This document shows, piece after piece, positions 1-12,771 of a DNA stretch of 12,771 nt. Under the pieces are notes generated by a model. That model worked only from the letters and a program-made list of their open reading frames with translations, was not told where the DNA came from and did not search any database. The stretch is from assembly GCA_048772705.1 (NCBI GenBank), contig JBLWGC010000116.1, positions 1 to 12,771 of the forward strand. The letters are read 5' to 3'. Position 1 is the first letter of the stretch. Every line of letters begins with the position of its first letter. The DNA is from Leidyana gryllorum EB-2025a. Taxonomy: Eukaryota > Protista > Apicomplexa. Both the position numbers and the translations under genes were made by a program.

Positions 1-296
1 TGTAAGTGTCGGGCTCTGGGGGGTCGAGGGTAGGCCGTCGGGCCTTCTGGGTGAGCGCCTTGGGGAGGATTGACGCCCTTCTGGTGCGTTTAACGGTAAG
101 AGTCATATTCGTGTGTTCGTTGTAGGTTCGCTCCCGTGTCTCCGTACCCGGTGCCGGCCGGCACTGGAGACACAGACACGCTCGCAGCCGGACTGATTCG
201 TCAGCCGGTGACATGCAACTAAAAAGGGTACACAGAGGGCTATGCTGATCGGGACCTGGATTCAGGGGGGTTCAGTGGTGTAAGTCACCTCTTACA
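1..296 (-). repeat. 3' LTR of inner element
   Basis: No differences from 4487-4782 seen on base-by-base reading. TG...CA ends with 6-bp terminal inverted repeat. Abuts the PPT. Confidence 0.97.
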
Positions 297-3200
297 CTCC
301 TCCCTCCATATTTAAGTCGTCTCCCCGTAGCTCACTCTCGGTGAATGGGTTGGCTCCGCGCCTCGTGTTCCACTCGTGACGGTACTGTAGTATGAGATCC
401 ATGGCGTCCGCGTCCAGTACGTTCTTGGCGGGCTCCCACGTTGCTTGGTGCCTTGGGTATCCCTGCCATTGGACCAGGAACTTGAGGCCGGTTCTGTCCA
501 GTTGCTGCGCTAGGACCTTCTCCATCATGAAGAGGGGGGGTTCGGTCTCTGGTGGTTGTCCCTTGAACGTTTTGAGTCGAGAGACGTGAAAGCGGCGTAG
601 TCCTCTCCATGAGTCGGGCATGTCGAGCTCGATCACATCTGCGGGTAGCACTTGAGTGATCTGGAAGGGGCCTAGGTAAGGTTTGGTGAGCTTCCCCTGT
701 GCTGTCCCCTGGAGTCCTTGTGCTCGCAACAGTACCCAGTCCCCGGCGGTGAAGCGTGCTTCCTGGCGGTGTTTGTCGTATTGAAGCTTTTGAGCTTCCT
801 GTGCGGCTCTGATTCTGTCCTGGATCTGCGTCAGTAGTTCCGTGTGCAGTCCCTGCGTAGTGTTCGTAGTGTTCAGGTTGAGTGTCAGTGGTATTCGAGG
901 TGTATACCCTCGTTCGGCTTGGAAGGGGGATATTTGTGTGGAGGAATTGGGCATACTATTGAAGGCGAACTCCACTGCTGGTATCTTCTCTGTCCAGTGA
1001 GGCCCCATCTCCTCACACACGGTCCTCAGCATCTGTAAGGTGGTTCTGTGGGCCCGTTCGAGCAGCCCATTGGTTTGAGGATGGCCGCGTGTGCTGGCCT
1101 TCAGTTTAGTTCCGCTCTCGTTTAGTAGATTCGTCCATATCTCCGATAGCCACCTGGCGTCTCGATCCGAGACGATTATCTGAGGGAATCCATGTTCGCG
1201 TACGAGTCTCTTCATGATGATGCGGGCGCAATCCTGGGCGGATGCCGAGTAGGCGCATGGTTCCAACAACACCCGGCGGGTTAGGCGGTCTATCATTGTC
1301 ATCAGGCAGTTTAGGCCGGTTGTTGGGTCAGTCGGGAGCGCCAGTAGATCAATGGACACCTCGAGCCAGGGTTGGTCGGGAGGTGGTATGGGGTTGAGGC
1401 ATCCCAGTGGTCTGGTGGTGGGCAGCTTGGCTCTTTGACATTGAGGGCATTCGCTGCAGTATTTTCGTACGTCTTCGGTTATCCCGGGCCAGCTGAAATG
1501 AGCTCTGATCTTTATCAGAGTCTTGTCATGTGACAGGTGTCCCGCCAGTGGGGAATCGTGGTTCTCTTGTATAACTAGTCTTCGTAGGTCGTTTCTGCCC
1601 GGTACATAGATCCTTCCGAATTCGTCGCAGAGGAAACCCTCGGTCAGCTCGTATCCCTGCGGGGTTTCAGTCATTTCGGCCGTTGCCATTCTGAGTCTCG
1701 TTGGAAAGTCGGTTCCCGAGATCTGAATGGTGCTCGCGAACACCCTTGTCGGCGGTTGTATCGCCCCTGCCCTACTTAGGAGGTCTGCCAGTTCGTTCTC
1801 CTTGCCCGGGATGTGGTCGATGCGGGTGGGATACTGAGATATTTTGACTAACCAGCGTACCACCTTTGGGCTGAGTGCTCCCGATCCCTTCGTGAGCACT
1901 GCTAGCGGTTTGTGGTCAGTGTGCACATGGAACTCCTTGCTAAGTAGGTAATGCTTCCAGCGTTTGAGGGCTGTGAGGATTGCCCATAGCTCCCGTTCGT
2001 GTACAGCCCAGTTCCGCTGACACGGATTCAATTTCACACTGAAATGTTCCAAAATTTCTCGCTGCCCCCCTGGTCGTTGCTCCAAGGTGCCCCCAACAGC
2101 TATGTCACTCGCGTCCGTCGTGACGTGGAATTCCAGGGTATCGTCCACTACTCCCAAGGTAAGGTCCTTCCCGAATGCTCCCTTCAATGCTTCCCATTCC
2201 TGTGTGCGGTCAGGGTCCCATCGTAGCTGTTCGCCTTTCTTGGAGTGTCCGTTTATCATCGCGTGCATCGGTGCTGCAAGGCTGGCAAAGTGCGGTATGT
2301 ATTTCGAGTAATACGTCATTGCTCCCACCACACGCCTTAGTTCTCCCATCGTCTTCGGCTGAGGTAGATCGCGTAGCGCCTCTTGCTTGCTGGGGTCAGG
2401 ATGGAGGCCGGTATGGTCGAGGTGCTGTCCTATGAATTGTACCTCCGTGAGAAAGAATCTCGATTTCTTGGGGTGGATCAACAGTCGATGTTCGTTGATG
2501 ACCTCCAACACCTCTCGTAAGTCTCTCCTGTGTTGTTCATGGCTAGGGCTATAGATCAAAATGTCATCCACATAGGCGAGCACACATTTGCCTAGAAAGG
2601 GTTGCAAAATGTGTTCGATGAAGGCTACGAAGGCGGGTGGGGCGTTCCGTAGCCCAAAGGGTAGAACGTTCCATTCAAACTTTCCGCAGCATGAAGAGAA
2701 GGCGGTGAGTTCTCTGGCCTCCGGTTTCAGCAGTATTTGGTGATAACCTGACTGCAGGTCAAGTTTGGAAAACACTCGTGATCCGCGCAGGGCTGGCGCT
2801 GCCAGGTCCGCCCGAGGTATCGGGTAGGCATATGGAATTGTCTGATCGTTAAGTCTCTTGTAGTTGATGACCATTCGCGGTACAGGTGTGTCCTTCTTGG
2901 GCACCAAGAAACAGGGGGCACCCCACTCGGATTTCGATGGGCTGATCTTCCCCTGCCCTAAGAGTTCTTGGATTTGTCTCGTCATTTCCGCCCGGTCAGT
3001 GTCCTTTGCGGCGTATGCTCGTTCGAAATGAGGTTGCGCCCCGTCTCGCAGTCGTATTTCAAAGTCGTGAAAGCCCCTCGTAGGTGGTAGTTGGTCGCCC
3101 TCCTTGAACAGTGTACCGAATTCCTCCATGAGCCACTCTTCTCCGATTGGGTACTGCACGGTCAGTGTTGTGGCAGCTCTCACCTGGGCTATTAGGTTTG

Positions 3201-3810
3201 TGCTGGTGTCCGGGACGCATACTTGGTCAAGTATTGTCACTTCTCCTTGTTGGTTCGTTCCAACTGCTAGTCGGAGTTTCTGGAAGGCTGGTATGCCGAG
3301 GATGGCGTCGAAGGGGTCTAGGTCCCCTACGTGGAAGGTGAGTTGGTGTACAGTGTTGCTGTGGGTTGTCAGTTGTGCTTGGAGCGTGCCTGCGGACTTT
3401 TGTTGTCCTATCCCGGAGATGGTCAGAGCTTGTGTTGCGTCTATTGGTAGTTGCAACTTTCTTGCGAGTTGTTCGTCAATCATGTTGATGTCTGCCCCCG
3501 AGTCGACTAGGCACAGGGCCTTGAAGTCGTTCTGTTGTCCGCGGAAGCTCCACTTCACTACCGCTCGCTGCCTGTGACCTATTCGGAATACCGTATGGGG
3601 GTGCTCCTTCTGCTGCTTCTTTATGGTAAGATGCCCCACTCCAGCATTATCCAAGGGTGGGGCCTTGCTCAAAAATCCTGGTTCTCGTCTGTGGTCATGT
3701 CGGGATCGTCCACCTGAGCTGGGTATGCTCTCCTGCTTGCGTTGGGTGGTCTTTTGGTTCGGTGCGGGCATTGTGGCGACAGGTGCCCCCCTTCGCCGCA
3801 GGTGAAGCAT
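292..3810 (-). CDS. pol: Pol polyprotein (aspartic protease, reverse transcriptase, RNase H, integrase, chromodomain), probably entered by -1 frameshift near 3672-3678
   Basis: Protease: LVDSGAD and ILGIP. RT: LPFGLRNAP and YVDDILI. RNase H: TTDASD, ERELWA, TDHKPL, ADLLSR. Integrase: HHCC (H..H..CPQC), SIDL/SDRD/NGLLE DDE and a GPF motif. C-terminal EKVL...FLVQWQGY....TWEP chromodomain. Confidence 0.97.
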   Translation of the reverse strand: MLHLRRRGAPVATMPAPNQKTTQRKQESIPSSGGRSRHDHRREPGFLSKAPPLDNAGVGHLTIKKQQKEHPHTVFRIGHRQRAVVKWSFRGQQNDFKALCLVDSGADINMIDEQLARKLQLPIDATQALTISGIGQQKSAGTLQAQLTTHSNTVHQLTFHVGDLDPFDAILGIPAFQKLRLAVGTNQQGEVTILDQVCVPDTSTNLIAQVRAATTLTVQYPIGEEWLMEEFGTLFKEGDQLPPTRGFHDFEIRLRDGAQPHFERAYAAKDTDRAEMTRQIQELLGQGKISPSKSEWGAPCFLVPKKDTPVPRMVINYKRLNDQTIPYAYPIPRADLAAPALRGSRVFSKLDLQSGYHQILLKPEARELTAFSSCCGKFEWNVLPFGLRNAPPAFVAFIEHILQPFLGKCVLAYVDDILIYSPSHEQHRRDLREVLEVINEHRLLIHPKKSRFFLTEVQFIGQHLDHTGLHPDPSKQEALRDLPQPKTMGELRRVVGAMTYYSKYIPHFASLAAPMHAMINGHSKKGEQLRWDPDRTQEWEALKGAFGKDLTLGVVDDTLEFHVTTDASDIAVGGTLEQRPGGQREILEHFSVKLNPCQRNWAVHERELWAILTALKRWKHYLLSKEFHVHTDHKPLAVLTKGSGALSPKVVRWLVKISQYPTRIDHIPGKENELADLLSRAGAIQPPTRVFASTIQISGTDFPTRLRMATAEMTETPQGYELTEGFLCDEFGRIYVPGRNDLRRLVIQENHDSPLAGHLSHDKTLIKIRAHFSWPGITEDVRKYCSECPQCQRAKLPTTRPLGCLNPIPPPDQPWLEVSIDLLALPTDPTTGLNCLMTMIDRLTRRVLLEPCAYSASAQDCARIIMKRLVREHGFPQIIVSDRDARWLSEIWTNLLNESGTKLKASTRGHPQTNGLLERAHRTTLQMLRTVCEEMGPHWTEKIPAVEFAFNSMPNSSTQISPFQAERGYTPRIPLTLNLNTTNTTQGLHTELLTQIQDRIRAAQEAQKLQYDKHRQEARFTAGDWVLLRAQGLQGTAQGKLTKPYLGPFQITQVLPADVIELDMPDSWRGLRRFHVSRLKTFKGQPPETEPPLFMMEKVLAQQLDRTGLKFLVQWQGYPRHQATWEPAKNVLDADAMDLILQYRHEWNTRRGANPFTESELRGDDLNMEGGV
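297..307 (-). other. Polypurine tract (plus-strand primer)
   Basis: Minus strand GGAGGGAGGAG lies immediately 5' of the TGTAAG start of the 3' LTR. Confidence 0.9.
3633..3678 (-). promoter_or_regulatory. Putative -1 ribosomal frameshift signal, inner element
   Basis: G-GAT-TTT (3678-3672) directly precedes the gag stop. Pol is in the -1 frame (GGA TTT TTG). A GCCCCAC/GTGGGGC stem begins 8 nt downstream. Confidence 0.75.
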
Positions 3811-4592
3811 AGTCCCAGTTTTTGGCAGTGTTCGCGAGTGTGAGGGTTGCGCTAGCCCACCCCTTTGTGTCCGGTGTTCCTAGTGATAGCGAGGATCCTC
3901 GTGTGGTTGCCTCGATGTGCGTTCTTCTCTCGCCCCAGTTCTGCAAGAAATTCCAGCGCGTCGTCCGTGTTCGATGGGTTTCGGCTCATGAGTAGGTCTC
4001 TGACGTTGGTCGGGAGTGCCCTTCTGACCACGTGGAGGATTTGTTGGTCATTCATGTTGGCAATGCCCCTTCTAAGTTCGCGGAAACGTTGTACGAAGGA
4101 TGTGAGTGTTTCTGGTGTGGCCTGCAGGTCCATTAATTCGTCAAGGTCCGACCGCGTGGTGGTTCCAAATTCGCGGTTGAAGCAGGTCACGAATTCGCTC
4201 CATGTGTATTCCCGCAGGTCGGCTTTGCTGCTTGCCGTGTTCAGCCAGCGTGCAGCTGAATCTTTAAGCGTACCGCACGCGATGCGAGTTCTTGATTCGT
4301 GGGTTATCAGTAGGGTGTCGAAGGCGGCCTCCAAGTTGTCAATGTGCGTTCTGGGGTTCTGCGTTCCATCGAAACTGCCGGTGAGTTGTGATACTAGTCT
4401 GATGTCCCTTGCCAGGTTCGTCTGTTGGTCCGATCGGTGTTTGCAGTGTCTGGGGGAGGTGAGCGGATCGCAAGCACTGCTACCAGTGTAAGTGTCGGGC
4501 TCTGGGGGGTCGAGGGTAGGCCGTCGGGCCTTCTGGGTGAGCGCCTTGGGGAGGATTGACGCCCTTCTGGTGCGTTTAACGGTAAGAGTCAT
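3669..4592 (-). CDS. gag: Gag of inner element (capsid-like domain plus CCHC nucleocapsid), interrupted by an in-frame TAG at 3852-3854
   Basis: ORF 3852-4700 has retrotransposon-gag motifs (FDGT, LKDSAARW, TWSEFVTCFNREF). The same frame continues past TAG as RNPHTREHCQKLGLCFTCGEGGHLSPQC...NQDF-TGA(3669-3671), which aligns with the outer gag. Start is ATG 4592 (preferred) or 4700. Confidence 0.88.
4474..4485 (-). other. Primer binding site, tRNA-iMet-like
   Basis: TGGTAGCAGTGC lies one base after the 5' LTR. It is complementary to a ...CTGCTACCA tRNA 3' end of the eukaryotic initiator-Met type. Confidence 0.85.
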
Positions 4593-4782
4593 ATTCGTGT
4601 GTTCGTTGTAGGTTCGCTCCCGTGTCTCCGTACCCGGTGCCGGCCGGCACTGGAGACACAGACACGCTCGCAGCCGGACTGATTCGTCAGCCGGTGACAT
4701 GCAACTAAAAAGGGTACACAGAGGGCTATGCTGATCGGGACCTGGATTCAGGGGGGTTCAGTGGTGTAAGTCACCTCTTACA
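4487..4782 (-). repeat. 5' LTR of inner element
   Basis: Copy of 1-296, followed on the minus strand by the PBS. Confidence 0.97.
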
Positions 4783-5237
4783 GTTGTCTCGCTTTCAAGG
4801 ATAGAGCCCTCCGCGATCACCATCCGTCCGTTACCGTCGGTTCCGAGGACCAGCGGTATGCTGTGTATCAGTGGTAACCCTATGATGGCTTCGTAGTGGT
4901 CATTGTGCACCACCGCGAAGCGAGTCGGTCCATAAGTGCCGAATTTTGTCTTCACGCACGCCTCCACTTCCCCTTCGCATCTTGCGGAGCCCATCCCGTC
5001 TATTCGGTGAGTCTCGGATGGCCGCAGTTCCAGTTCCAAGCTCTTTGCTAGATTCGGTGTCATAATGTTTAATTCTGATCCAGAGTCGATCAGCGCTGTT
5101 GTTCCTCTAACGTGCCCTCCCTTTGGGCTGGTCATCTCCCACTCCATTGTGGCTGTCCATCCTGCGCGCTGAGCGCCGCGCCAGTCTGTGGCTGTGAAGC
5201 ATGCGTCAGGCCCACGGAGGGCCTGGTCTAAAAATCC
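4783..5237 (-). pseudogene. pol: Start of outer pol (aspartic protease), disrupted by insertion
   Basis: ALIDSGSELNIM and AIIGLP protease motifs in ORF 4758-5846. The final residues VRGDLHH* come from the inner LTR. Confidence 0.9.
5207..5237 (-). promoter_or_regulatory. Putative -1 ribosomal frameshift signal, outer element
   Basis: G-GAT-TTT (5237-5231) precedes the gag TAG. A CAGGCCC-tccgt-GGGCCTG hairpin begins 5 nt downstream. The protease is in the -1 frame. Confidence 0.75.
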
Positions 5238-6199
5238 GAATCCACTTCCGCTTCTTCCTCTATCGCCGCCTCCACCGAGATGTCGGGTCTGGCTGGGAAA
5301 GCTTTGCGCTGTGGGTGTGTAGGTCGCCCTGAGTTTCCGCGTTTTGGGCACTTGTTGGATAGGTGTCCCCCTTGTCCGCAGATGTAGCACAACTGGTGCT
5401 TGCTGCAATGTTCTCGAGTGTGAGGGTTCTGGACCCCCACGCCCCGGCGGGTCGCAACCAATACTGTCCTGGTGTCCATCGCTCCCTGTGGGCAGAGCAC
5501 CAGCGTCAGCGATACAGCCTCGGCCACCGATTGCGGGTTTCTGCCTCGCATCGCGAGCTGTTCTGCTTTTGGGAGTCTTGATAGGAACAAATCCACCATG
5601 TCCGCCTCCGGAATGTTGCGAATCATGCGCCGCTCTTGTCGAAATGCTAAGGCAAACTGACGGATCCCTGCCTCCTCCGGTCGTAGGGCCACAAGTCGTG
5701 CTAGGCTGCCTCGCTTGTCCGATTCGAATTCGGTTGTTACCATTCTGCGGAACGCTGCCCACTCCATATGGCGAATGTCCATGTTGACCGCGTTCGCCCA
5801 CGACGACGCTCCCCCTCTGAAGGTCCCACAGGCCACCGCTGTCCAATGCCTGACTGGGAGGCCTGCGTTCCTGAAACAGTTCTCGAGTGTGTCGAGGTGA
5901 ACTAGTGGTTCTGAATTGCCATCATAGGATCCCGCCACCTGAACGGTCGTGCGAATCCATCCCATCAGACGTAAGGCTGTGTCCGTCGGCTCCAGTGGTT
6001 CATTAGCCAGGTCGGTTTGCTTGTGAGTGTTCTGCGGCCTGGCGCCTTCGTCCAAATCCGTTGCCGTTTCTGGTTCCTCGCCCAGTGCTGGTTGACACGC
6101 ACTGCTACCAGTATAACCCGGTGGGGGTAAGTCTGTAGCTGGATCTACTAGGCTAATCTGCTTTCCATTTCGTAGGACTAATCCTGGTTGATCGTTCAT
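5228..6199 (-). CDS. gag: Gag of outer element with CCHC zinc knuckle
   Basis: MNDQPGLVLRNGK N-terminus, YDGN, FRGGASSW, CYICGQGGHLSNKC. ATG 6199 is chosen because the ORF-track start at 6388 lies outside the LTR. Confidence 0.9.
   Translation of the reverse strand: MNDQPGLVLRNGKQISLVDPATDLPPPGYTGSSACQPALGEEPETATDLDEGARPQNTHKQTDLANEPLEPTDTALRLMGWIRTTVQVAGSYDGNSEPLVHLDTLENCFRNAGLPVRHWTAVACGTFRGGASSWANAVNMDIRHMEWAAFRRMVTTEFESDKRGSLARLVALRPEEAGIRQFALAFRQERRMIRNIPEADMVDLFLSRLPKAEQLAMRGRNPQSVAEAVSLTLVLCPQGAMDTRTVLVATRRGVGVQNPHTREHCSKHQLCYICGQGGHLSNKCPKRGNSGRPTHPQRKAFPARPDISVEAAIEEEAEVDSDF
6099..6110 (-). other. Primer binding site of outer element
   Basis: TGGTAGCAGTGC, identical to the inner PBS, one base from the LTR end. 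Confidence 0.85.
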
Positions 6200-6347
6200 C
6201 TCCGTTGTCAAGTAACTCAAAAACGTAAGCACACGCGTGTCTGTCTGATCCCGTCTCCGTCTCGTGCCGGTGCCGGCCGGGCACCGAGACACAGACAAAT
6301 GGCGGACCGGCTCTGGCCGGCCGCTGATAATTGTGTAACCCCTTACA
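6112..6347 (-). repeat. 5' LTR of outer element (~236 bp, TG...TA ends)
   Basis: Begins TGTAAG on the minus strand and ends GTTATA next to the PBS. Shares the GGTGCCGGCCGG...GAGACACAGACA block with the inner LTR. The partner LTR is outside the window. Confidence 0.75.
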
Positions 6348-6370
6348 GGCTCTAAGCGAAATTTATTACA

Positions 6371-6541
6371 TTTTTTTGATGTCGTCACCCTTATCTCGTT
6401 ACAAGTTTATCGGTGTTTTTTGATGTCGTCATCCTTATCTCGTTACAAATTCATCGGAATTTTTCATGTCGTCATCCTTAACCCGTTACTAATTCATAGG
6501 AATTTTTCATGTCGTCATCCTTAACCCCTTACCAAATTTTC
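6371..6541. repeat. Four tandem 43-44-bp repeats with core ATGTCGTCA(T/C)CCTTA
   Basis: ATGTCGTCA at 6379, 6423, 6466 and 6509. Confidence 0.92.
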
Positions 6542-6624
6542 AAAAAAGCAGAGTTCGTCACCAGTGTGCAACTTGTACCAGATGATACTTGTGTTACACA
6601 TCTCTTTGCAGCACCTTCAGTACC

Positions 6625-7425
6625 CCTTTGCAACATGTTCGAGACTTGTTTGTGACATGTTTGACACTTGTTTGCTACCTGTTTCACACTTGTTTCCTAC
6701 TTGCTTGCTACTTGTTTGATACTTCTTTGAAACTTGTTTGCCACATGCTTTACACTTGCTTCCCACTTCTTTGCCACATCTTTCATACTTCTTTGACACT
6801 CAGTTGAGACTTGTTCGCCACATGTTAAACACTTTTCTGCCACATATTTCACACTTGTTTGACACTTGTTTGCGACATGTTTGCGACATCTTTGGCACTT
6901 GTTTGCCACATGCTTTACACTTGCTTGCCAGTTCTTTGCCACATGTTTAACACTTGTTTGAAACTCCGTTGAGACTTGTTCGCCACATGTTCAACACTTT
7001 TTTGCCACATGTTCCACACTTGTTTCACACTCGTTTGACACTTGTTTGCGACATGTTTGCGACATCTTTGGCACTTGTTTGCCACATGCTTTACACTTGC
7101 TTGCCAGTTCTTTGCCACATGTTTAACACTTGTTTGAAACTCCGTTGAGACTTGTTCGCCACATGTGTAACACTTTTTTGCCACATGTTCCACACTTGTT
7201 TGACACTCGTGTGACACTTGTTTGCGACATGTTTGCGACATCTTTGGCACTTGTTTGCCACATGCTTTACACTTGCTTGCCAGTTCTTTGCCACATGTTT
7301 AACACTTGTTTGAAACTCCGTTGAGACTTGTTCGCCACATGTTTAACACTTTTTTGCCACATGTTCCAGGCTTGTTTGACACTGGTTTCCGAGTTGTTTG
7401 ACACTTGTTTCACACTTCTTTGCTA
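6625..7425. repeat. 11-bp-monomer satellite (ACACTTGTTTG-like) with 165/176-bp higher-order units
   Basis: GAAACTCCGTTGAGACTTG recurs at 6960, 7136 and 7312 (176 = 16x11). Boundaries approximate. Confidence 0.92.
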
Positions 7426-8619
7426 CTTGATAGGTACTTAAATGACACTTCTCTACAAGTCGTTTGAACTCGTACATATCGTTCCAGCGCAATTGCACGC
7501 AAGATTGATGCAATTCGTCCGTTCTACTTATCACATTCACGATAGGTTGCTAACTATTCCATCAATAAATAAATCTCACAGAAACAATGGGTACGGGGAA
7601 GCGCCCGAGCGAAGCGACAAGGGCGCTCCACACACCCCATCAATACTTCTTCACGCACACTATTACTCAACGTACATATCAGCCTTAACATCCCGCTCGT
7701 ACACTAACAATCCGAATACCCATAACTCTTAGCATATATACACTCTCTCAATGTTTTATAGCAAACAACTGACCACCACCCTCTTACCACACCTCGAACT
7801 ACATCACAATTGTCAATATACTCCTATTAACCTACCTATCATTAGCCAAATTCATGTCGCCCGAATCAACACTCAAATCCTATGCATAACTTGACTCCAT
7901 CCGCATATTCTTACAAATTCCCATTCACTCCAATAAATAATGTCCACGATACGCATTCGACTCATGACATTCTTCTCAACACTCTCAATTCAACTTGAAT
8001 CTCATTGATTCCCCTATATCTAGCATCACAAGCTTTTATACGTCTACAAATACTCCCTCAATCAACGAGCGAATCGCTAAGTCACTCTAGACCCCTCACA
8101 GCCTAACAGACAAACCATCTAAACCAATATCACTCACACATAACCTTCCAAGTTGCTCCACATTCACTTTAGCAAACTGAGCATACTACACATCACAGCA
8201 CAGTTACCAAAATACACGCCATACACTCATACAATCATGCATCTCCAGCTCATATAGTCTCACAAATCAATACATAACAAGCACGATACCTGTCAACATA
8301 CTAAGCAACACAACTACATCGTCACAGTCTTTTATTAGCACAATACACACCACATCAGACCTTACTTGCGCACGCTACAGCAACCGCAACGTGTAGAGAA
8401 TTGAAAGCTAAACATTCGCAAACACGCAAACACAGTACAATTCAGCGATAAACAAGCACATAAACCACATAATCCAAAAGCAAACAGCAGTCACAACAGC
8501 CATCGAAGCCGACCGAAACGCCGAACCAAAGGTTACAGGCCAACTAGTCCATTGGTCTATCGGATAGCGGGCAACACACAAAAAGGTAAGTTCACGTGAT
8601 CTATCTTCCTGTTGTGCAG

Positions 8620-8649
8620 GTCGGCGAAACCCGCAAGGGTGAGCCCGAC
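8620..8649 (+). other. 30-nt imperfect terminal hairpin, flip form
   Basis: GTCGG-CGAA-ACCC-GCAA-GGGT-GAGC-CCGAC, the exact reverse complement of 12131-12160. Confidence 0.9.
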
Positions 8650-9769
8650 TAGTTTGCCTATAACCTTTGGTTCGGCGTTTCGGTCGGCTTCGATGGCTGT
8701 TGTGGGTGCTGTTTGCTTTTGGATTATGTGGTTTATGTGTGTTTATCGCTGCATTGTACTGTGTTTGCGTGTTTGCGAATGTTTAGCTTTCAATTCTCTA
8801 CACGTTGCGGTTGCTGTAGCGTGCGCAAGTAAGGTCTGATGTGGTGTGTATTGTGCTAATAAAAGACTGTGACGATATAGTTGTGTTGCTTAGTATGTTG
8901 ACAGGTATCGTGCTTGTTATGTATTGATTTGTGAGACTATATGAGCTGGAGATGCATGATTGTATGAGTGTATGGCGTGTATTTTGGTAACTGTGCTGTG
9001 ATGTGTAGTATGCTCAGTTTGCTAAAGTGAATGTGGAGCAACTTGGAAGGTTATGTGTGAGTGATATTGGTTTAGATGGTTTGTCTGTTAGGCTGTGAGG
9101 GGTCTAGAGTGAGTTAGCGATTGGCTCGTTGATTGAGGGAGTATTTGTAGACGTATAAAAGCTTGTAATGCTAGATATAGGGGAATCAATGAGATTCAAG
9201 TTGAATTGAGAGTGTTGAGAAGAATGTCATGAGTCCAATGCGTACCGTGGGCATTATGTATTGGAGTGAATGGGAATTTGTAAGAATATGCGGATGGAGT
9301 CAAGTTATGCATAGGATTTGAGTGTTGATGCGGACGACATGAATTTGGCTAATGATAGGTAGGTTAATAGGAGTATATTGACAATTGTGATGTAGTTCGA
9401 GGTGTGGTAAGAGGGTGGTGGTCAGTTGTTTGCTATAAAACATTGAGAGAGTGTATATATGCTAAGAGTTATGAGTATTCGAATTGTTAGTGTACGAGCG
9501 GGATGTTAAGGCTGATATGTACGTTGAGTAATAGTGTGCGTGAAGAAGTATTGATGGGGTGTGGGGAGCGCCCTTGTCGCTTCGCTCGGGCGCTTCCCCG
9601 TACCCATTGTTTCTGTGAGATTTATTTATTGATGGAATAGTTAGCAACCTATCGTGAATGTGATAAGTAGAACGAACCAATTGCATCAATCTTGCGTGCA
9701 ATTGCTCTGGAACGATATGTACGAGTTCAAACGACTTGTAGAGAAGTGTCATTTAAGTACCTATCAAGT

Positions 9770-11115
9770 AGCAAAGAAGTGTGAAACAAGTGTCAAACAA
9801 CTCGGAAACCAGTGTCAAACAAGCCTGGAACATGTTGCAAACAAGTGTGAAACATGTCGCGAAGCAAGGGTCAAACAAGTTCGCAACAAGTTTTAAACAT
9901 GTTGCAAACAAGTGGCAAACATGTGTCAAAGATGTCGCAAACATATCGCAAACGAGTGTCAAACAGGTGTGAAACATGTGGCAACAAACAAGTGGCAAAC
10001 ATGTGTGTCACACGTGGCAAACAAGTAGCAAACAAGTGTCAAAGATGTGGCAAACATATCGCAAACAAGTGTCAAACGAGTGTCAAACAAGTGTGAAACA
10101 TGTGGCAAACATGTAGGAAACAAGTGGCAAGCGTGTGTGTAACACGTGGCAAACAAGTAGCAAAACAAGTGCCAAAGATGTCGCAAACAAGTGTCAAACG
10201 AGTGTCAAACGAGTGTGAAACATGTGGCAAACATGTAGGAAACAAGTGGCAAACGTGTGTGTAACACGTGGCAAACAAGTAGCAAAACAAGTGCCAAAGA
10301 TGTCGCAAACAAGTGTCAAACGAGTGTCAAACAAGTGTGGAACATGTGGCAAAAAAGTGTTAAACATGTGGCGAACAAGTCTCAACGGAGTTTCAAACAA
10401 GTGTTAAACATGTGGCAAAGAACTGGCAAGCAAGTGTAAAGCATGTGGCAAACAAGTGCCAAAGATGTCGCAAACAAGTGTCAAACAAGTGTGGAACATG
10501 TGGCAAAAAAGTGTTAAACATGTGGCGAACAAGTTTCAACGGAGTTTCAAACAAGTGTTAAACATGTGGCAAAGAACTGGCAAGCAAGTGTAAAGCATGT
10601 GGCAAACAAGTTTCAAACAAGTATCAAACAAGTTGTGGCAAAAAAGTGTTAAACATGTGGCGAACAAGTCTCAACGGAGTTTCAAACAAGTGTTAAACAT
10701 GTGGCAAAGAACTGGCAAGCAAGTGTAAAGCATGCGGCAAACAAGTTTCAAACGAGTGTCAAACAAGTGTGGAACATGTGGGAAAAAAGTGTTAAACATG
10801 TGGTGAACAAGTCTCAACGGAGTTTCAAACAAGTGTTAAACATGTGGCGAAGAAGTGGCAAGCACGTGTCAAACGAGTATCAAACAAGTGTGAAATATGT
10901 GGCAGAAAAGTGTTTAACATGTGGCGAACAAGTCTCAACTGAGTGTCAAAGAAGTATGAAAGATGTGGCAAAGAAGTGGGAAGCAAGTGTAAAGCATGTG
11001 GCAAACAAGTTTCAAAGAAGTATCAAACAAGTAGCAAGCAAGTAGGAAACAAGTGTGAAACAGGTAGCAAACAAGTGTCAAACATGTCGCAAACAAGTCT
11101 CGAACATGTTGCAAA
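9770..11115. repeat. 11-bp-monomer satellite (CAAACAAGTGT-like), expanded version
   Basis: Same monomer as 6625-7425, inverted. About 550 bp longer, including ~122-bp units around 10070-10310. Boundaries approximate. Confidence 0.92.
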
Positions 11116-11200
11116 GGGGTACTGAAGGTGCTGCAAAGAGATGTGTAACACAAGTATCATCTGGTACAAGTTGCACACTGGTGACGAACTCTGCTTTTTT

Positions 11201-11371
11201 GAAAATTTGGTAAGGGGTTAAGGATGACGACATGAAAAATTCCGATGAATTAGTAACGGGTTAAGGATGACGACATGAAAAATTCCGATGAATTTGTAAC
11301 GAGATAAGGATGACGACATCAAAAAACACCGATAAACTTGTAACGAGATAAGGGTGACGACATCAAAAAAA
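11201..11371. repeat. Four tandem 43-44-bp repeats (inverted copy of 6371-6541)
   Basis: TAAGG(A/G)TGACGACAT core occurs four times. Confidence 0.92.
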
Positions 11372-12130
11372 TGTAATAAATTTCGCTTAGAGCCACCCAA
11401 TAAGACGAGAAAGACGGTAGGGGAGACTGAGAATGACTCAATGAGATGTTAGCTGGGGCGTCACTGGATGCTGGTTGGGGCAGGTAGCGAATGGGGGTCA
11501 GTTGGCTGGGATTAAAACTGCACAACGGGGAGGTGAGGCTCTGGTCGCAAAGTGGCGAAGCTCTTCCTCGGCTATGTGAGATGTGTGGGGATGAGGTGTG
11601 GGAACTTACTTGGTGTGGGAACGTGCCAGACCAGTCTGAGTGGCACGAGGTCACGTCTTGGGAACATCTGGGGGGGAAGAAAGCGAGCGCGAGCGAGAAG
11701 AGGGCTTTTTGGATCTGAGAACAAAAATAACAGTCCAAGTCCCACGTCTCGCACACCAAATCTTGGGAAAAGTGGCTCGTTTGGGCTGCTATCTGTTGCT
11801 TGCGAGCCGCACGAGAGCTAAATTAAGGAGTCTGACGACCCTTACATCTCGATGGGAGGCTAGTTTGCTGTAGCGAACGAGCCAATTGAAGTTTGGGAAG
11901 TCTCATTTTTGCAAAAATCAGGCCTTCTCGTGTCTCAGAGAGCTCGAGAGAGTCGCCTATCTCCTATTCTAGCGGTGAGATTTCGCCTAAAATCTGGCTG
12001 CTAACTAATCAGGCCACTACTATTCCTAAGGTAAGCGAGAGAGCTAGTCTAGAGCTCCTAATCAAATTCCTATTTCACTAAAAGTCGTTTCTGGTACCCC
12101 CTAAGAACCCCCAAAAAACCTACGGTAATG

Positions 12131-12160
12131 GTCGGGCTCACCCTTGCGGGTTTCGCCGAC
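12131..12160 (+). other. 30-nt imperfect terminal hairpin, flop form
   Basis: GTCGGGCTCACCCTTGCGGGTTTCGCCGAC, followed by the same TAGTTTGCC as copy B. Confidence 0.9.
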
Positions 12161-12771
12161 TAGTTTGCCTGTAACCTTTGGTTCGGCGTTTCGGTCGGCT
12201 TCGATGGCTGTTGTGACTGCTGTTTGTTTTTGGATTATGTGGTTTATGTGCTTGTTTATCGCTGCATTGTACTGTGTTTGCGTGTTTGCGAATGTTTAGC
12301 TTTCAATTCTCTACACGTTCCGGTTGCTGTAGCGTGCGCAAGTAAGGTCTGATGTGGTGTGTATTGTGCTAATAAAAGACTGTGACGATATAGTTGTGTT
12401 GCTTAGTATGTTGACAGGTATCGTGCTTGTTATGTATTGATTTGTGAGACTATATGAGCTGGAGATGCATGATTGTATGAGTGTATGGCGTGTATTTTGG
12501 TAACTGTGCTGTGATGTGTAGTATGCTCAGTTTGCTAAAGTGAATGTGGAGCAACTTGGAAGGTTATGTGTGAGTGATATTGGTTTAGATGGTTTGTCTG
12601 TTAGGCTGTGAGGGGTCTAGAGTGAGTCAGCGATTCGCTCGTTGATTGAGGGAGTATTTGTAGACGTATAAAAGCTTGTAATGCTAGATATAGGGGGATC
12701 AATGAGATTCGAGTTGAATTAAGAGAGTGTTGAGAAGAAATGTCATGAGTCCAATGCGTATCGTGAATTAT
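12131..12771 (+). repeat. Copy C of the unknown terminal repeat, running off the window
   Basis: 12161 onward matches 8650-~9260 directly, with a few substitutions and indels. Confidence 0.95.

Follow-up and report, generated by a model that had tools for sequence, protein, structure and literature searches.

The window, the whole stretch of 12,771 nt that was analysed, is eukaryotic DNA (Table 1). Its left half is occupied by nested Ty3/gypsy retrotransposons, in which Pfam recognizes gag, protease, RT, RNase H, integrase and chromo domains. Gypsy proteins account for 4 of the 10 ORFs searched, and the other six gave no Pfam match below E 0.03. The LTRs of the younger element are identical (0 differences in 296 nt), and the primer-binding sites beside the 5' LTR are similar in both elements. 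Since the nearest Pol relatives found by database search are only 32-41% identical, the host lineage appears to be poorly sampled.

The right half of the window holds a long non-coding repeat in three copies, A, B and C, whose pairwise divergence is about 2% (10-11 substitutions per 605 columns). Just inside the hairpin described below, the alignment of B and C (605 columns) shows 10 substitutions and 5 gap columns. Neither of the two is closer to the other than to A, so their join is not a recent concatemer. Between A and B, the unique block by the end carries 21 substitutions in 1124 columns, against a single one in 278 in the inner block (6348-6625 vs 11117-11394), and gene conversion between the two copies is possible.

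Table 1. Features of the window, with coordinates and strand
Feature	Position	Strand	Remarks
Two nested Ty3/gypsy retrotransposons	left half of window	minus	Pfam
Younger chromodomain Ty3/gypsy element	1-4782		LTRs 1-296 and 4487-4782; open 1172-aa Pol
Second gypsy element	4783-6347		hosts the younger gypsy; itself breaks copy A
LTR of Ty3/gypsy interrupting copy A	6111-6347	-	LTR end abuts 6348; B continues past the equivalent point
Copy A, 3' part of repeat	6348-8547	+	CTAG at 8544-8547, then TC; left side cut by LTR
11-nt tandem array in A, counterpart of that in B	6636-7429		higher-order period 176
Spacer between A and B-side hairpin	8550-8619		70 nt; holds 34-nt intron-like stretch 8586-8619 (+)
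Hairpin beside B	8620-8649	+	30 nt; GTCGG/CCGAC arms outside the common repeat
Copy B as one unit	8649-12159	-	3511 nt, 5'-TC to CTAG-3'
Strong internal hairpin	9555-9605		about 0.9 kb from CTAG end; A counterpart near 7590-7640
11-nt tandem array in B	9772-11106		120 copies, higher-order period 122
43-nt tandem array in B	11204-11369		3.8 copies; A counterpart 6373-6538
736-nt block	11395-12130		single copy in window
Hairpin beside C	12131-12160	-	30 nt; on minus strand directly after C's CTAG
Copy C, 3' end of repeat	12160-12771	-	CTAG 12160-12163; cut by window end

Anatomy of the repeat copies

No element with the repeat at both ends lies in the window, since an LTR truncates A at 6347/6348 and C runs out at the window end. 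What is present is one and the same end in three copies, and TIR, the label given to it in a sequence-only reading of this DNA, is an assumption. When the boundary is moved by one base, CTAG followed by T is found in all three copies (8544-8547, 8649-8652 and 12160-12163). With the same one-base shift, a TC start appears at 12159 on the minus strand and also at 8621 on the plus strand. The CTAG of C then abuts the TC of the 3511-nt unit, which gives a CTAG-TC join at 12160/12159. On this anatomy, 8649-12159 is likely to be a complete non-autonomous Helitron-like element, read on the minus strand.

The interior of the unit is rich in tandem repeats. As the 11-nt arrays of A and B differ both in length and in higher-order period, they point to a satellite evolving inside the element. 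The internal hairpin and its counterpart in A fold with z-scores of -4.3 and -3.6, and on the CTAG-ending strand the loop carries GCGAAGC, a motif frequent in Helitron and Helentron hairpins. A loop motif of this type in Helitrons found no confirmation in the bioRxiv texts. On one strand, the GC skew over 8650-11760 is 0.45 near the CTAG end and 0.2-0.3 further in, and falls to about 0 in 11761-12130, the inward-reading strand being G-rich. When the two non-array blocks were read through in 12 frames, Pfam detected no family below E 0.3 (one match, E 0.32), and neither a recombinase nor a RepHel domain was found in those frames. The 736-nt block would be the 5' part of the unit in the reading favoured here, or the interior of B, hit by C, in the sequence-only reading. 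Its attachment to the hairpin is seen once, in the only copy that the window contains.

The spacer has no 10-mer in common with the rest of the window, and its comparison with 11395-12130 gave no match longer than 9 nt. An 11-nt near-perfect palindrome lies in it at 8556-8566, 6 nt past the end of A. Three intron-like stretches can be read on the plus strand, at 8586-8619 (34 nt), 11975-12012 (38 nt) and 12031-12084 (54 nt), all with GTRAG donors and two of the three with a CTRAY branch-like motif. They may indicate gene fragments, and a host whose introns are very short; for the first of them, the pattern, which was picked post hoc, is reached by 179 of 200000 shuffles. A hammerhead reading was dropped after an Rfam scan of 6100-12771 returned 0 matches at E up to 5.

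The 30-nt hairpin and its junctions

The hairpin beside B (8620-8649) matches 12131-12160 exactly in reverse complement (30 of 30 nt; blastn E 3e-9), and the exact match ends at GTC/GAC edges on both sides. Copy A ends with AACTAGTC at 8549, runs directly into cattgg and has no hairpin; it stops at the GTC that mirrors the outer edge of the hairpins of B and C. Copy B starts at 8620 with GTCGGCG after tgcag, and copy C at 12131 with GTCGGGC after taatg, beyond the segment to which the sequence-only reading had been assigned. These three ends, as well as the complementarity between AATG at the flank of C and CATT at that of A, with B matching only the G, are exactly as that reading had described them. 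The chance of the four given flank bases is 0.005, and that of the flanking G/G/C is 0.01, both features having been selected post hoc.

Read on the same strand, the loops of B and C mismatch at 12 of 20 bases, against the 10 substitutions and 5 gap columns in the 605 columns next to them, which indicates that the loop is inverted and has not drifted. The GCAA-tetraloop version always stands on the strand that begins with TC. The folding energy of the hairpin is unremarkable (z -1.4 and -1.3, with 20 and 19 of 200 shuffles folding equally well). At 8626-8643, GAA faces GA across the stem below a GCAA loop, and only one strand of this hairpin can form sheared G-A pairs together with a GNRA loop. 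A GAA/GA bubble is also a feature of the left end of the parvovirus MVM.

The origin of the hairpin was considered as well. The spacer, the hairpin and the block 11395-12130 could once have been contiguous in another repeat or gene that offered a preferred target for CTAG 3' ends and was hit once per arm. Such a history would do without a long inverted repeat, and an intron-like GTGAG..TAG stretch of 41 nt does span the hairpin and its 12130 side. Nevertheless, it requires two hits on a foreign 30-mer, and the arm motif CCGA occurs three times in the last 60 nt of the repeat against 2.8 per kb further in, an enrichment that ties the hairpin to the repeat. A foreign hairpin is, on balance, barely credible. 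When prokaryote genomes were scanned for exact matches to 19 nt of the hairpin, 97 loci came up, which were rejected as coincidence: most are one common coding stretch in Caulobacteraceae, which we take, from its peptide, to be ribosomal protein L21, and the rest are scattered. The outer hairpin arms occur in 0 of the 97 loci within the printed flanks, and Rfam applied to 14 of them gave one unrelated ROSE match. Exact-pattern scans of metagenome contigs and of viral contigs yielded no match.

A probable Helitron-like element and its rivals

The reading favoured here, for which right and wrong are evenly balanced, sees in A, B and C the 3' ends of a Helitron-like element (rolling-circle, HUH), non-autonomous and about 3.5 kb long, with the hairpin as its 5' end and G^TC as its cutting site. 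The probabilities given to this reading and to its rivals are matters of judgement and were not computed, the evidence base being three ends in one window and published anatomy. A transposase encoded elsewhere would nick before TC, one strand would be displaced as far as CTAG, and a CTAG-TC circle would be closed and then pasted into a G^TC target. The 5' hairpin would present G^TCGG on both of its strands. Use of the outer arm, by pasting or by rolling through, would give the head-to-tail join of C and B. If the inner arm on the opposite strand were used, the first 29 nt (8621-8649) of an oppositely oriented copy would remain before the 3' end of B, and such an insertion at the mirror arm would mimic a flipped loop. 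Copy A would be an ordinary insertion before a host TC. Under this scheme, the hairpin would never flip, no long terminal inverted repeat would be required, and G^TC would serve as a single rule for all four junctions.

From composition, the chance per position is 2.3e-4 for CTAGTC and 9.3e-4 for CTRRTC, which amounts to about 0.1-0.4% over four registers, or, with the GTC core presupposed, to 1.8-3.1%; the Helitron motif was, moreover, spotted post hoc among many possible terminal motifs. As the 6-mer CTAGTC occurs 8 times in the window, it counts only because its position is the boundary. The base preceding TC is G at both readable 5' flanks, and T follows CTAG in all three copies. At a distance of 23 nt from the 3' end, a weak stem-loop begins with six nucleotides that repeat the 5' end in inverted orientation; the layout recalls HLE2, but the signal is a weak one that 952 of 20000 shuffles reach. 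This 3' stem-loop ends 7-13 nt before the terminus, with z-scores of -0.84, -0.06 and -1.12 in the three copies, where HLE1 elements carry a stable hairpin about 11 nt from their 3' end.

The target sites agree with neither of the two published groups. HLE1 elements insert between A and T, and here G stands before TC; HLE2 elements insert at TT or in T-rich DNA, and here the flanks are GG and TCC. The element is, therefore, called Helitron-like and placed in neither group. Since GTC sites run at 29 per kb, the mirror-arm insertion must be a hot spot. Insertion of this kind by Helitron-like elements was not found in the literature covered, that is, the main texts of mostly non-subscription papers. 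The match between AATG and CATT is left unexplained by the favoured reading, as a matter of chance.

The sequence-only reading had offered another account, in which the repeats, of more than 2.2 kb, are inverted, and the circle carries a repeat-hairpin-repeat junction at which a tyrosine recombinase crosses either of two symmetric GTCs with a host GTC. Each insertion would then have one bare end, and the other end would carry a 27-nt extension in flip or flop form. The logic of a symmetric site holds insofar as G^TC or GTC on both strands does explain A, B and C. The merged junction itself is a construct that is absent from the window, and an exact scan of viral contigs for the symmetric junction was likewise negative. 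The bare end, the 27-nt extension and the 3-nt core fit DIRS1-like termini, but they do not single out a recombinase: the letters left by an HUH nick at G^TC are identical, so that the ends alone cannot name the enzyme.

A recombinase acting in this way would cover the three copies with a single rule and three ordinary insertions. In the published table rows covered, DIRS1-like elements have a junction of 3 bp and are extended on one side by 9-48 nt, in several cases by 26-30 nt and sometimes on the left (PMC3266345), and DIRS-1 is described with a hairpin near its 3' end (PMC7192593). The flanks yield G-GTC-C, AATG and CATT being possible arms of a symmetric target, and the plus-strand intron-like stretches, which lie to the left of C and to the right of A, are compatible with a single gene-bearing target that was split at GTC. 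Among other elements, the main texts report phaeovirus integration via a 2-nt core (PMC13236599) and virophage TIRs of up to 2.3 kb (PMC8547959). On the other side, CTAG-TC at the junction would have to be due to chance, at the 0.1-0.4% given above, and the flank of B matches one base only of the proposed target. The model requires inverted repeats no shorter than 2.2 kb, and none are visible in the window; the conserved ITRs of DIRS elements span 32-202 nt in the rows covered, and are thus more than ten times shorter than the common repeat (PMC3266345). An internal region complementary to the junction is absent from the window, interiors, if any, lying outside it. The 12 frames hold no recombinase, no element in the window has two such ends, and flip and flop forms of DIRS were not found in the mostly non-subscription texts covered. 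Overall, this model is coherent and in part supported, yet rather unlikely.

Inverted repeats could also belong to a Helitron. A fold-back element, two-ended and moved by an HUH transposase, would carry CTAG^TC on both strands of its junction. As a nick on either strand would be possible, the 5' ends would occur in true flip and flop forms, and the 3' end would be a bare CTAG. The CTAG-TC motif, flip and flop, and the bare end would then all follow from three ordinary G^TC insertions. Such a junction would be made by a mirror-arm insertion into a tandem join, and self-insertion in opposite orientation has been proposed in the main text on FoHeli elements as a source of composite Helitrons (PMC5148889). 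However, the inverted repeats described for Helitrons are of 8-18 nt, kilobase ones were not found in the literature covered, and a two-ended element is not visible in the window. We consider this version quite unlikely.

Taken in its broader form, as a eukaryotic element with kilobase inverted repeats and a two-fold symmetric circle junction round a mismatched hairpin, from which flip and flop ends arise through either strand or core, the two-ended idea is possible, if short of probable. It would be moved by a tyrosine recombinase that uses a 3-nt core, or by a nickase of Helitron type that acts on both strands. If this is true, integration would follow a new architecture, and the element would be naturally suited to testing how a tyrosine recombinase is used by elements with long inverted repeats.

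Hairpin ends and long inverted repeats also recall virus-like elements, such as virophages, polinton-like or parvovirus-like elements. Flip and flop would then stem from hairpin-primed replication or a template switch, the hairpin of A having been lost later. Several endogenous virophages do have palindromes beside their TIRs (bioRxiv 2026.07.28.741278, main text), and the G-rich inward strand, with a skew that declines from 0.45 to about 0 over 3.5 kb, is what strand displacement from an end might yield. Against this, such elements are described with target duplications and with hairpins at both ends, the loss of A's hairpin must halt exactly at the mirror GTC, no viral gene was found, and the exact scans of viral contigs gave no match. 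This origin is very unlikely.

Overall, the set of junctions is real and unusual, and a new variant of Helitron-like element most likely accounts for it. If the favoured reading is true, the family inserts at G^TC, which is also the setting of its circle junction, and both arms of its 5' hairpin serve it as targets. This would bear on Helitron target choice and on self-insertion as a builder of tandem and inverted composites, and it would be a warning that such nests imitate TIR elements with flip and flop ends.

Comparison with known mobile elements

The comparisons below rest on the main text of the papers cited, and the terminal alignments held in supplements may bear on them. Neither flip and flop forms of Helitrons nor a description of the present arrangement was found in the mostly non-subscription main texts covered. 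Parvovirus and poxvirus termini likewise occur as flip and flop, but the two-ended reading would concern a chromosomal transposon. With virophages and polinton-like viruses, the repeat has in common its length (published repeats reach 2.3 kb) and a terminal palindrome, whereas the known ones described have target duplications, symmetric ends and viral genes, with those for capsid and packaging lying between the TIRs (bioRxiv 2026.07.28.741278; PMC8547959). Polinton-like viruses (PLVs) bearing a tyrosine recombinase (YR) are treated here as context (PMC11296320), and Crypton and Starship elements as background only (PMC13465315). Replitrons were set aside, as the three ends gave no argument for the 'fuzzy' end or matching direct repeat described for them (bioRxiv 2022.12.15.520654).

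The likeness to DIRS1-like elements would lie in the bare end, in the 27-nt extension with a hairpin and in a trinucleotide (GTC/GAC) common to both ends (PMC3266345, PMC7192593), although the two end types are not seen on one element here. In contrast to the DIRS1-like elements described there, the repeat of the window is filled with satellite as well as far longer than their ITRs, its extension occurs in two orientations, and RT or recombinase is not seen.

For Helraiser, a circle junction in which CTAG is joined to TC has been demonstrated (PMC4778049). The unit has in common with HLE1 and Helraiser its 5'-TC, the T after the 3' end and the CTAG-TC head-to-tail join, and a target duplication is likewise not seen; the CTRR-3' terminus of HLE1 is present as CTAG in all three copies. 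The canonical targets given in the main text are A^T for HLE1 and T^T for HLE2 (PMC11417382), and, of the 1751 Helraiser insertions, 46 fell outside AT, mostly at TT, AC and AA (PMC4778049).

The likeness to HLE2 (FoHeli1-5, Helitron2 and HINE/DINE) concerns other parts of the unit, namely the TC start within a 5' hairpin, the internal tandem arrays, insertion beside the 5' ends of other copies and, less clearly, a short stretch 20-30 nt before the 3' end that repeats the 5' end in inverted form (PMC5148889, PMC3627910, PMC11417382, PMC7492417). Internal tandem arrays are described as typical of non-autonomous Helentrons (PMC7492417), whose build the unit shares in having such arrays and no Pfam domain in its non-array blocks, and also of Paramecium Helitrons (bioRxiv 2025.11.06.686955). 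Inverted repeats of Helitrons measure 8-18 nt (PMC3627910, PMC11417382); for Helitron2, the inverted match is of 8-15 nt (PMC3627910), whereas that of the window unit is of 6 nt. Unlike the HLE2 elements described, the unit ends with CTAG and not with runs of T, its target is not T-rich, and its hairpin occurs in both orientations beside the 3' end. In the main text on FoHeli elements, FoHeli1 starts with TC within its 5' hairpin, one FoHeli copy is inserted 2 bp from the 5' end of another, both tandem insertions and partial 5' termini (31-85 bp) are reported, and self-insertion in opposite orientation is the proposed origin of composite Helitrons (PMC5148889).
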